Below the pieces are notes generated by a model. It did not search any database. It was not told the origin of the DNA and saw only the letters and a list, made by a program, of their open reading frames with translations. A stretch of DNA of 20,682 bases from a virus: UHGV virus genome UHGV-0140731. One strand, written 5' to 3'. Within the stretch, counting starts at the first letter, position 1. Every line of letters starts with the position of its first letter. Below are positions 11,405 through 13,704 of the stretch, piece by piece. The position numbers and the translations under genes are program-made.

Positions 11405-11557
11405 TGATACCTCGTAGAATCTGGTGTGTTAACCGATTCTACGAGTTGTCATTTGTTACCGGTCAGTCTACACATTTCAGATGCTGCGTTAAAAAATTCA
11501 AGTACTTCAAGTAGCACATCGTCATCAACACCCAGCCCCAAGATACGGTGATAAAAT

Positions 11558-12535
11558 TCAAGCCTTAAGAGGCTTTGTGTATGTTCGTGTAATCCAACCA
11601 GTAATAAACTCATCCCCTGATTTAACCTGCACGTAAAGCCATTGACGATCTTTCTTATCTAAAATAGCAACAATTGTGTTTTTGCCAATGCATTCAATCA
11701 CTTCACTATTTAAAGAAGGGCTGACATGTAATCTTACGTTATCACCAGTTATAAACCTAAAACCATTGAGATCTTCCCACTTAATTTCTGTGTTTTCTTT
11801 AATTAATTTTTGTTTTGATATTGGTGCATCCTCATATAGGGATACAGAATATGATTCTGTCTTGTGTATTTGCGATAAGATTTGTTCTTTTGCATAATCA
11901 GCAATGGCACCAAGCAACACTTCTGTTAAAAACCACATAATAATAAACTGAAGCGGGTGAGGGAGCGCCTTAAATGAGTCAATAAACGTCGAACTGGATT
12001 TATTTAATCCTTTGTCTTGAACATCACTTTCGTTGTGAGATGTTTCAATAGCACCTTCAACATAAGCCTGTGCAATTGATGAAAGACCTTGCTCCATTGT
12101 TCTATTAAATAGAGATGTCTTTTTTTCAATATATTGATTTTCTTGTTTTTTTATAATATCTTTTGTTAAATCATCGTAAGTTATATATTCTCGTAAATTT
12201 TTAAGTGTAGCCTCCATACTTTCCAAGCCAGCTTGTTTATTAAAAACTTCTATCTGGCTTTGTAATGACAAAGATTTTTCCGACTGTTTCTGAAAATTTT
12301 CAACATACTTACGGAAAAGATGGTTTATCTCATTCGTTTTTAGTGATGTGTTAAATTTTTTTTGAAGATAATTATCTAATATTTTTTGAGATGTTTTTTC
12401 CAAAACTATATGCAATAGATTTTGTTGCAAAAAATCAAGCGGGGTAGTAAGACCACCCAAACTCACTGATTTTGCTAAATTACTTAACTCGTTATATTTG
12501 GAGCTATTAATACTTGCCATCTTATTCGCCATCAT
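11558..12535 (-). CDS. AT-rich cargo gene: membrane protein with central TM helix and C-terminal SH3b-like domain
   Basis: 325-codon ORF in strongly AT-rich DNA; hydrophobic segment LQFIIMWFLTEVLLGAIADYA; C-terminal ~65 aa resemble bacterial SH3 domains (GDNVRLHVSPSLNSEVIECIGKNTIVAILDKKDRQWLYVQVKSGDEFITGWI). Exact start ambiguous (MMANKMAS). Confidence 0.55.
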   Translation of the reverse strand: MMANKMASINSSKYNELSNLAKSVSLGGLTTPLDFLQQNLLHIVLEKTSQKILDNYLQKKFNTSLKTNEINHLFRKYVENFQKQSEKSLSLQSQIEVFNKQAGLESMEATLKNLREYITYDDLTKDIIKKQENQYIEKKTSLFNRTMEQGLSSIAQAYVEGAIETSHNESDVQDKGLNKSSSTFIDSFKALPHPLQFIIMWFLTEVLLGAIADYAKEQILSQIHKTESYSVSLYEDAPISKQKLIKENTEIKWEDLNGFRFITGDNVRLHVSPSLNSEVIECIGKNTIVAILDKKDRQWLYVQVKSGDEFITGWITRTYTKPLKA

Positions 12536-13028
12536 ATTGTTTTAAACACCCGTCTTTTTTAGCTTCCTTGTAAATACTTGAAATACCATTAAGAGAGAAT
12601 GATGTGATTCGACGCGATCCGATATATACATCCATGTTTTTTTCTTTTGTGGCTGACGCTGACTTCCAAAAAGAATACCATTCCCTACGATTTGGAGCAG
12701 TGTTTTGCGTACCAATATTAAAGCTATCCGGACCAACAATTAAGGTAATTACATCAGCTTTACGAGAAATTGTATCGCGTGTAGAAAAATCAGCATTCTC
12801 TTTCCCTCCGCTTACATACAAATTTCTTCCAGCGATATGATCTTCGGAACCTTCCCTTGCTCCAGCATCACAAGAAAAGTTAATTGTATAGCCATCGTCA
12901 TTGGCTGCAGAAATTTCTCTCCACCCTTGCTCACCTCCTACCGTCCAATCGGTAGAACTTGCCATTGCTGATAATGGCAAGAAAGAGGGCATTAATAAAA
13001 AGCTATACAATGACTTATACAATTTCAT
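12522..13028 (-). CDS. AT-rich cargo gene: secreted/periplasmic protein (signal peptide), unknown function
   Basis: 168-codon ORF; ATG 13026-13028 with AAGGA upstream; N-terminal signal-peptide-like sequence MKLYKSLYSFLLMPSFLPLSAMA. Confidence 0.55.
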   Translation of the reverse strand: MKLYKSLYSFLLMPSFLPLSAMASSTDWTVGGEQGWREISAANDDGYTINFSCDAGAREGSEDHIAGRNLYVSGGKENADFSTRDTISRKADVITLIVGPDSFNIGTQNTAPNRREWYSFWKSASATKEKNMDVYIGSRRITSFSLNGISSIYKEAKKDGCLKQYDGE

Positions 13029-13116
13029 ATTTTTATCCTTTTGGTTTTAGGTATTACAGGCATAGTCCATATTGTTAGATCCACTATGCCCAGAGAATTT
13101 AATATTATTCATTAAA

Positions 13117-13608
13117 TTATGGAGCTACACCCGGCCCCCTAGCTCGTTCTTCAAGCGTACCCTGTACGTTTTGATGGCGCATTCCCGGGGCATTTCTGAT
13201 TGAGTCAATGCCATTTCTTCCAACATCTTCTTTATTGACGGCATTGCTCGCCACCAGCACCCCCCAGCTAGGGATAGCAAAATCAGGAGCGGTTTCGCAT
13301 GCCTTTACCATATAATCGAAAGTGCTTCGATTGATCTCGTTCGCGTCCGGATTTAACAGGCGAGAATATTGATATTTAGCATTTTCGTTGGTTGCGACTT
13401 TATACAGTTCTTGCTGCACCATCGCTTCAGAAAGTTTAAGGCGTTTCATGTCTGAAAGTAACTTCTTGCGCATGGATTCGTCTTGGCTGACAGCAAAGCC
13501 GTAAACGTGCCCAAGGTATTTCGTATAATCGGTACAAATCTCCTTTACACTTGATGCTGCATTAACAGTCCCAGCCATAAATAATAACGGTAGTAATAGT
13601 TTTCTCAT
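13117..13608 (-). CDS. Secreted protein with a Sit-related C-terminal tail (chimeric)
   Basis: Start placed at ATG 13606-13608 (MRKLLLPLLFMAGTVNA, GGTGAGG upstream) rather than the longer track start. The last ~45 aa (SNAVNKEDVGRNGIDSIRNAPGMRHQNVQGTLEERARG) are homologous to a segment of the Sit-like protein (GNAVGVNDLVNKFMNGRGMRREVVQGTLEERARG). Confidence 0.55.
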   Translation of the reverse strand: MRKLLLPLLFMAGTVNAASSVKEICTDYTKYLGHVYGFAVSQDESMRKKLLSDMKRLKLSEAMVQQELYKVATNENAKYQYSRLLNPDANEINRSTFDYMVKACETAPDFAIPSWGVLVASNAVNKEDVGRNGIDSIRNAPGMRHQNVQGTLEERARGPGVAP

Positions 13609-13704
13609 TATAACCTCACCTGCCTTATAACCCATTTAGGGTACATATTTTCGCCTTTAAAAAAAAGAGGTTATTAGATCCATTTGTGTATTTATCATAC
13701 AATT

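Follow-up and report, generated by a model that had tools for sequence, protein, structure and literature searches.

The subject of this report is a block of three genes, named here A, B and C, that lies between the immunity region and the tail operon in a 20,682-nucleotide stretch of virus genome UHGV-0140731 (the whole of this stretch is called the window). On similarity and on gene order, which is the same as in P1 along its length, the window belongs to a P1-like (Punavirus) phage-plasmid. In a megablast search, the interval under study matched P1, P1-like phages and 336 plasmid records, mostly non-mobilizable E. coli plasmids of ~90–100 kb; the hosts of the matching elements are gut and clinical Enterobacteriaceae. 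P1 itself covers 11% of the interval, at the edges only. The three open reading frames (ORFs) reported in an earlier note on this DNA are present on the minus strand at the coordinates given below, and all are under purifying selection relative to close homologs (ratio of nonsynonymous to synonymous substitution, dN/dS, 0.02–0.32). They occupy the space between the ImmI region (c4/icd/ant) and LPsit/pmgC and are transcribed towards pmgC. At the same position, with conserved flanks on both sides, P1 carries simA-simB-simC, annotated as superimmunity genes, an identity that the earlier note overlooked. The cassette is an alternative set in a known variable superimmunity slot. Its features are as follows (aa, amino acids).

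13117..13608, minus strand: gene A, 163 aa
12522..13028, minus strand: gene B, 168 aa
11558..12535, minus strand: gene C, 325 aa
11458..13468, no strand: segment without P1 counterpart (blastn breakpoints against NC_005856 at 11457 and 13469)
11436..11454, minus strand: late promoter LPsit, 18/19 bases as in the annotated P1 element, −10 intact
13607..13699, minus strand: counterparts of PsimB and PsimA upstream of A, by alignment to the P1 annotation
13705..13721, plus strand: C1 repressor operator Oc4 (Op51), 17/17 bases as in the annotated P1 operator
11560..11575, minus strand: weak terminator-like hairpin and T-rich stretch directly after the C stop codon, from a consensus scan

The segment without P1 counterpart replaces P1 simB, simC and the 3′ end of simA, its left breakpoint lying just upstream of LPsit and its right one inside gene A. 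LPsit is retained downstream of C and divides the cassette from the pmgC-tub-pmgB-sit operon; since the block lies upstream of this promoter, it is a separate unit ahead of the tail operon and not, as had been proposed, the head of it. On the other side, Oc4 sits at the divergent c4/cassette promoter region, where the c4 promoters are identical to those of P1. The PsimB counterpart (13607-13635) has 1 mismatch to P1, and the PsimA counterpart (13673-13699) has an intact −10 and 2 mismatches in the −35; both are predicted sigma-70 promoters in P1 as well. A generic promoter and terminator scan over the island gave no enrichment over chance (three terminator-like sites against 1.9 expected) and did not pick up the PsimA and PsimB counterparts.

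Predicted exported and membrane proteins of the cassette

The gene A product is a 163-aa protein whose start at 13608 is preceded by a strong Shine-Dalgarno sequence (AGGTGAGG); an in-frame ATG at 13635 would add 9 residues. It begins with a typical Sec signal peptide (MRKLLLPLLFMAGTVNA, followed by ASS), and residues 1–50 of the long form are 92% identical to the entire 52-aa SimA of P1. Because these first 50 residues match the whole of SimA, P1 simA is a stub left as simB-simC replaced the rest of an A-type gene; on this alignment, A is the full-length form of a gene surviving in P1 only as the 52-aa SimA. This view of simA as a truncated remnant of a larger conserved gene is new. The A family corresponds to phrog_3933, its relatives are named 'simA domain protein' by NCBI, and its members come only from ~90-kb P1-like contigs (Escherichia, Klebsiella, Salmonella), with identity down to 52%. 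AlphaFold models residues 19–128 as an all-helical domain with a predicted local distance difference test (pLDDT) score >90 and the tail with pLDDT 47–63, which predicts a helical periplasmic domain (~19–128) followed by a flexible tail. Close homologs of A give dN/dS values of 0.02–0.04. A near-threshold Pfam match to PTPlike_phytase (26.8 bits against 27, also precomputed) was treated as spurious, as it covers part of the helical region and the covered stretch has no evident catalytic features.

Gene B encodes a 168-aa protein with a typical Sec signal peptide (MKLYKSLYSFLLMPSFLPLSAMA, followed by SST) and two conserved cysteines, and the two small proteins with signal peptides reported previously are those of A and B. 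B is predicted to be a periplasmic protein of the YfjT family (PF27224), a label that is precomputed for a 95%-identical cluster (P0030) and for the B-family genes of nine related loci. Further members of this small family (21 representatives among 1.84 billion proteins) come from a Klebsiella jumbo phage and an Enterobacter/Serratia chromosome. A literature search on YfjT/YkfB function found nothing specific; the K-12 proteins are described as uncharacterised (PMC11551758), and deletion of ykfB gave no motility phenotype (PMC4183435).

Gene C overlaps the end of B by 14 nucleotides. Its family, phrog_7086, is confined to P1-like elements of Escherichia and Citrobacter, and the protein has the architecture described in the earlier note, that is, a charged N-terminal half, one hydrophobic segment and a C-terminal SH3b-like domain, seen here as an SH3_3 match just under the Pfam cut-off. 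This is a common domain set in an architecture peculiar to the C family.

11894..11956, minus strand: predicted transmembrane (TM) helix of C, residues 194–214, PLQFIIMWFLTEVLLGAIADY, the top-scoring 19-residue Kyte-Doolittle segment (1.76)
11579..11743, minus strand: SH3b (SH3_3) domain of C, residues 265–319, Pfam PF08239

The domain match (E 8e-6, 26.4 bits against a cut-off of 27) spans profile positions 1–52 of 54, and nearly all members of the C family carry precomputed PF08239 matches. C is predicted to be a single-pass membrane protein, and the long N-terminal domain without a signal peptide suggests an N-in, C-out topology. The C-terminal third of the family (TM helix, linker and SH3b, ending RTYTKP.K) is almost invariant, with dN/dS values of 0.13–0.32 over the C-terminal 135 codons; a PDB sequence search with this third returned no homologs. 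The N-terminal ~190 residues are charged and hypervariable, mosaic and often repetitive across the family, and in this half the scans detected neither an enzymatic domain nor a known effector domain; what they returned was low-complexity or coiled-coil-like sequence and weak matches judged spurious. The N-terminal variant of the window is rare, being shared only by one other locus (L005) and one 16-member cluster, and for this reason no plasmid record covers the whole interval. In the family alignment (A3; proteins P0083-P0085, from Citrobacter, and P0075/P0076), the Citrobacter members have long tandem arrays of a ~19-residue repeat (SLSERITKLAQGSTIADSV) in the N-terminal half and other C-family proteins repeat an 'IQKQAGF/L' unit; copy number differs among relatives.

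A peptide shared by gene A and the tape-measure protein Sit

The C-terminal tail of A resembles a short stretch of Sit, a product of the tail operon. Sit is the P1 tape-measure protein, virion-associated, essential and endowed with an SLT domain (PMC9024508, PMC10695390); in the window it has 1124 aa and an SLT transglycosylase domain.

13120..13245, minus strand: tail of A with the Sit-like short motif (NAVNKEDVGRNGIDSIRNAPGMRHQNVQGTLEERARGPGVAP), by BLASTP
5864-9238, minus strand: sit, by P1 gene order
6368..6478, minus strand: Sit residues 921–957 (motif 1), the stretch resembled by the A tail
6209..6250, minus strand: Sit residues 997–1010, a second partial copy (FDKLRNSPGMRKNN), specific to the P1 group

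BLASTP aligned residues 131–171 of A (long-form numbering) with Sit 921–957 at 51% identity (E 1e-7), with a weaker second match at Sit 997–1010. The Smith-Waterman score of the A tail against Sit is 90, a value reached by none of 2000 shuffles (31.9 ± 4.4, maximum 61), and Sit is the only other reading frame of the window that scores against this tail. A PHROG scan agrees: the C-terminus of A matches positions 928–963 of phrog_2533, which is Sit, and the matches are reciprocal. Comparison with the virion proteins revealed no mimic among the other slot proteins, the A–Sit pair being the sole resemblance of any slot protein to any protein of the window. To the remnant status of simA can be added, as a second new observation, that long SimA holds a conserved peptide shared only with Sit. 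At the DNA level the motif core is identical at 37/51 nucleotides and at 8/17 third codon positions; a recent DNA duplication was rejected on the latter count, and the same count indicates that the similarity is old; it lies at the protein level.

Conservation of the peptide extends beyond the window. Along the A-family tail, which otherwise varies, two positions (N139 and R144) never change and two others (G142 and Q146) hardly ever do. Among P1-group loci, motif 1 of Sit scarcely varies, and it is also conserved in D6-group Sit proteins, which are ~50% identical overall; a D6-group element of K. aerogenes, for instance, has NAPGMRHQAVQGTLAERAYGKG in Sit and NAPGMRHQKVEGSLMERARGPG in A. The core [NS]-x-[PR]-[GS]-[MV]-R is found in both A and Sit in 10 of the 10 genomes compared, across this ~50% divergence of Sit. 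The motif is absent from the Sit proteins of a Serratia and a Pantoea element, the same two distant elements that are without A. The GMR motif of Sit occurs in two copies in P1-group phages and in one copy in the D6 group, and the second copy exists as two alleles, RNSPGMRKNN and INARGMRSNN, each occurring with several cassette types.

In A, the motif lies in a low-confidence tail joined to a confidently folded domain; this tail is probably disordered, judging by the model, and a disordered tail on a folded domain is the usual layout of a short linear motif. In Sit, it is found ~70 residues past the end of the stretch alignable to the solved SLT domain of T7 gp16, the ejected transglycosylase that is the nearest solved relative of Sit. 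A PDB sequence search with the region after the SLT domain returned no homologs, and Sit is absent from view in recent cryo-EM maps (PMC12810830). Within sit, between 6751 and 8000, the G+C content dips to 0.41–0.43 with strongly negative GC skew nearby; P1 Sit is reported to have 1140 aa (PMC9024508) against 1124 aa in the window, and the dip together with this length difference suggests internal mosaicism of the tape-measure gene.

Modular turnover of the slot

The contents of the slot were compared at 86 loci anchored on PmgC, which is 97–100% identical across the P1-like loci compared. Both icd and pmgC could be placed in 73 of these (including the window and four annotated records), and the genes between them were classified, in order of transcription, as follows.

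A, B: 19/73 loci
TraT-like lipoprotein, DUF5384 protein: 19/73 loci
simA stub, SimB, SimC: 13/73 loci, plus one without a detectable stub
A, B, C (the type of the window): 10/73 loci
116-aa membrane protein, B, C: 6/73 loci
116-aa membrane protein, B, DUF4760 protein: 2/73 loci
Singletons, including A followed by a SimC-like protein: remainder of the 73 loci

At least six different cassettes thus occur among 73 near-identical backbones, and every slot product carries a signal peptide, a lipobox or a TM segment. On these gene contents, the sim slot is a place where modules are exchanged, with at least six unrelated sets of envelope proteins. That the slot is variable was already known from published comparisons, in which simC-simB-simA counts among the eight regions of low G+C content and high variability in P1-like phage-plasmids (PMC9603915) and D6-like prophages diverge near simB and within sit (PMC6799933); the catalogue of cassettes and their relationships is new, with no earlier description in the literature searched. 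As the block is absent from P1 and present in only 10/73 related loci, it is accessory and not conserved core, which answers the check on P1-like relatives suggested in the earlier note. Among the plasmid records, the cassette of the window occurs in 34/336. B is always paired, in P1-like elements, with an upstream envelope gene (A or the 116-aa membrane protein). A 116-aa gene upstream of a chromosomal YfjT homolog was considered as a relative of this membrane protein and proved unrelated to it.

In the TraT-like cassette, which is the joint commonest, a glycine-zipper lipoprotein matches Pfam TraT at E 2.8e-5 (24.5 bits against a threshold of 31) and is followed by a signal-peptide protein with DUF5384 (E 3e-43); in this type (L007 and 18 other loci) the icd-pmgC interval is about 1757 bp. 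The simC-pmgC spacer of P1 (L001, NC_005856) holds, on the opposite strand, a 55–59-codon remnant of the DUF4760 gene, which is intact (297–333 aa) in other cassettes of the same slot (L004 at 1663-2625, L071, L080 and L042); this remnant is a footprint of earlier cassette turnover. Two short contigs filed under metagenome-assembled genomes named Bacillota and Candidatus Paenibacillus (L087, JAFAFU010000002.1; L088, DXHF01000172.1) carry pmgC and cassette genes 97–98% identical to P1-like ones and most likely represent a mis-binned enterobacterial phage-plasmid.

Base composition bears on the age of the three genes. The G+C content of 11458..13468 is 0.366 against 0.470 in the rest of the window, and in the 500-bp stretch 12001-12500 it falls to 0.29 against 0.46–0.50 in the flanks. 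By gene it is graded, from 0.322 in C (0.258 at third codon positions, GC3) through 0.387 in B (GC3 0.296) to 0.451 in A; neighbouring genes range from 0.46 to 0.50, and A is indistinguishable from the backbone at 0.47. The AT-rich island described previously is therefore real for C and B, including the dip to 0.29, but does not extend to A. Nine divergent relatives of P1, from Salmonella, Klebsiella and a metagenome, have a Sit ~50% identical to that of the window; each has the gene order A, one or two YfjT-family genes, pmgC. As A homologs served as the queries that found these loci, what they demonstrate is conserved pairing and position and not universality. Serratia and Pantoea elements with ~60% identical PmgC have no A, and in the Serratia element structural genes abut pmgC. 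From the backbone composition of A, the 5′ end it shares with simA and the conserved A–YfjT pairing, A and B appear to be long established in the slot, and C to be an AT-rich addition. What had been called an acquired moron is thus an accessory set in a variable slot, with a predicted envelope location, but its reading as one acquired AT-rich unit is not supported, given the composition of A and its shared 5′ end.

Among the D6-group elements, one has two tandem YfjT-family paralogs after A (L105, 8747-9774) and another an extra 117-aa gene between A and the YfjT gene (L104, 8768-9650); with such additions the slot is modular in this group too. In L091, L095, L102 and L105, the interval that separates the antirepressor gene ant from the structural genes upstream contains, next to ant, toxin-antitoxin pairs (PrlF antitoxin with YhaV toxin, or Gp49/HI1420-type); the A/YfjT cassette is a few kb away.

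The remaining backbone features of the window, placed by P1 gene order unless stated otherwise, are:

9320-10201, minus strand: pmgB
10216-10827, minus strand: tub
10838-11404, minus strand: pmgC
13902-13987, plus strand: C4 RNA (Rfam RF01695, 70.8 bits)
14034-14255: icd
14252-15289: ant1
15930-16730: kilA
16760-17605: repL

The Rfam scan gave only C4, its a1/b1 target element (c4-a1b1, 13782-13834, plus strand) and, overlapping the latter, a sub-threshold match to isrK (13795-13876, 47.9 bits against 50), all of them outside the island. An 82-aa ORF at 13768-14016 (minus strand) that overlaps these RNAs is probably not a gene.

Proposed envelope exclusion and competing explanations

P1 superimmunity (sim) has been known for decades, and in the older P1 literature the cloned sim locus excludes P1 after adsorption and a sim product is processed as an exported protein. 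The literature searched here gave no mechanistic account of the phenomenon, and nothing specific on defence hot spots in P1-like phage-plasmids or on experiments with this cassette. We consider the chances about even that A, B and C are an alternative, envelope-located superinfection-exclusion set in the sim slot. Phenotype and mechanism are what we infer from position, slot variability, accessory status, export and membrane signals, purifying selection and the similarity of the A tail to Sit, all of which were computed or observed here. Superinfection exclusion, already a candidate in the earlier note, gains real support, because the experimentally named superimmunity genes of P1 occupy the same slot. 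The P1 sim genes are non-essential, dispensable for plaque formation and lytic growth (PMC10695390), as is expected of genes that benefit the lysogen. The TraT-like lipoprotein of the commonest alternative cassette, as a predicted relative of an exclusion protein, points to an entry-exclusion theme for the slot.

Under this explanation the three genes would be expressed independently of the late tail operon, and their products would act in the envelope of the carrier to stop related phages from delivering DNA. A more specific proposal, in which A acts as a decoy that mimics Sit, is put forward as a rather doubtful possibility. A would be secreted to the periplasm, where its flexible tail would display its copy of the motif conserved in Sit ([NS]-x-[PR]-G-M-R-x-x-V-Q-G-T-L-E-x-R-A-x-G) and compete with the Sit ejected by an incoming P1/D6-type virion for the normal contact of the motif, which may be a component of the host envelope or else a further ejected or tail protein; as a result, no DNA conduit across the envelope would form. 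B in the periplasm and C as an inner-membrane anchor with a peptidoglycan-facing SH3b domain may hold or position the complex at the wall and membrane.

Several observations weigh against exclusion by such a cassette. BLASTP and tblastn detected no homolog of SimC in the window, and SimC, present in 15 other loci, is the product that we take to be the only one of the P1 sim locus tied to the Sim phenotype; the same searches gave no similarity to SimB. Scans of A, B and C yielded 0 matches in PADLOC-DB v2 and no meaningful NCBIfam match, which leaves anti-phage defence, another of the functions first proposed, without a matching model; PADLOC and NCBIfam scans of the SimB, SimC and Ro157 proteins gave no meaningful match either, and the alternative-cassette proteins tested fell into 0 PADLOC families. 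Expression in the lysogen would depend on predicted promoters, in a region where promoter-like sites are no commoner than chance. A periplasm-facing, cell-wall-binding sensor, as C was first described, is plausible, but its topology is deduced and the charge bias around the TM helix is uninformative or ambiguous. As for the decoy, pairs of A and Sit from one genome are slightly more alike than cross pairs, but the co-variation is not significant (permutation P 0.21 for the core and 0.085 for 30 residues, in n=10 non-independent genomes; in the P1 group, also tested, the motif is invariant). The A tail of the window scores higher against a foreign Sit than against its own, part of the A family retains only the N-x-x-G-M-R core, and the motif in A could be left over from an ancient domain exchange and serve no purpose there today.

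Other functions were weighed against the same evidence. Envelope factors of lysogenic conversion, of which lambda Bor, lambda Lom and plasmid TraT are examples, may benefit the host in ways unrelated to phage (serum or complement resistance, colicin or antibiotic tolerance, envelope-stress buffering). That all slot products are envelope proteins fits such a role, as do the gut and clinical origin of the hosts, the TraT-like lipoprotein of an alternative cassette (TraT is also a complement-resistance factor in the Pfam description) and the presence of YfjT-family genes in chromosomes outside phage contexts and, with no phage phenotype known, in cryptic prophages of K-12. We regard it as unlikely, for it leaves unexplained the conserved tape-measure motif in A, the confinement of the A and C families to P1-like elements and the use of the superimmunity slot of P1. 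The inhibition of the gp5 lysozyme by T4 Sp provides the model for self-protection, in which A, B or both would block the transglycosylase activity of the Sit SLT domain within the periplasm and C would anchor the inhibitor to peptidoglycan, preventing lysis-from-without or wall damage; this proposal overlaps with envelope exclusion and, taken separately, appears quite unlikely.

Abortive infection or signalling would have C sense perturbation of the wall or periplasm through SH3b, with A and B as co-sensors and a response through the variable cytoplasmic N-terminus. The architecture of C (a binding domain outside the cytoplasm and a long domain inside it, joined by one TM helix) suits a sensor, and its N-terminal hypervariability and repeat expansion resemble arms-race evolution; however, this half has no enzymatic or known effector domain, PADLOC gave no match, and C is not a core component of the cassette, since it is missing from most cassettes that retain A and B. 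We hold this explanation to be improbable. A part in the lytic cycle, either in tail or tape-measure maturation or in lysis timing, with the similarity to Sit reflecting a shared assembly partner, seems highly improbable. The genes are co-oriented with the tail operon and immediately upstream of it, A and Sit have the motif in common, SH3b domains are common in endolysins and the SH3b part of C matches the amidase phrog_1794; nevertheless tail assembly takes place in the cytoplasm, away from the exported A and B, the cassette precedes the late promoter, has no catalytic domain and is missing from P1 as well as from most relatives with the same virion, and the equivalent P1 genes are non-essential and undetected among virion proteins (PMC9024508, PMC10695390).

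If envelope exclusion through the Sit motif is correct, the motif marks a docking step in P1 DNA entry not known so far, and the sim slot is an arms-race locus in which SimC, the TraT-like lipoprotein and the A/YfjT/SH3b set attack the same entry step in different ways. The motif common to A and Sit offers a direct experimental handle on the old question of how Sit opens the path for DNA; work on the A tail and sit could explain how exclusion operates and also locate a functional site in the tape-measure protein of a contractile tail. P1-like phage-plasmids carry extended-spectrum beta-lactamase (ESBL) and mcr-1 resistance genes (PMC9603915, PMC5786510), so the cassette of a strain may influence which such elements enter. 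Should the cassette prove to lack a phage phenotype, what is left is a variable accessory region of the ordinary kind.

The closest known system is the P1 sim locus, which has the same slot, orientation and flanks (Oc4/c4 on one side, LPsit/pmgC on the other), begins its first gene with the same ~50 codons (SimA and A are 92% identical there at the protein level), and, like the cassette, encodes exported products in a low-G+C region variable among P1-like elements. The cassette differs in having no SimB or SimC homolog and in that its exclusion phenotype is putative, and the 52-aa SimA stub of P1 has neither the helical domain nor the Sit-like tail, so the most informative feature of the cassette has no counterpart in P1. 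YfjT and YkfB of the K-12 cryptic prophages CP4-57 and CP4-6 carry the same PF27224 label as B and its relatives, a likeness by label, and like them are ~150-aa proteins with a signal peptide and two conserved cysteines; one B-family gene on a P1-like plasmid is annotated ykfB. They differ from B of P1-like elements in the constant association of the latter with an upstream partner gene. TraT of F-like plasmids is comparable with the alternative cassette found in 19/73 loci and not with A, B or C. The periplasmic immunity proteins Tai4 and Rap2a/Rap2b, directed against type VI amidase effectors, are also among the closest known systems.

As to mechanism, the nearest parallels are Ltp of TP-J34, gp15 of HK97 and SieA of P22, prophage-encoded envelope proteins that block DNA entry after adsorption; the cassette is likewise prophage-encoded and predicted to be envelope-located. 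Bebeacua et al. 2013 is said to be the reference for the genetic identification of such exclusion targets. Exclusion by Ltp and HK97 gp15 is overcome by tape-measure changes, and escape mutations from SieA map to ejection proteins (PMC10883804). No sequence relationship of the cassette with these three is known or was detected, direct comparison not being part of the searches, and P1 has a contractile tail, unlike the phages that carry them. Copying of a target segment has not been reported for Ltp, gp15 or SieA, and competition through a shared motif is proposed for A only; these proteins target tape-measure or ejection proteins, and the cassette of the window has a direct sequence link to one such protein, Sit.

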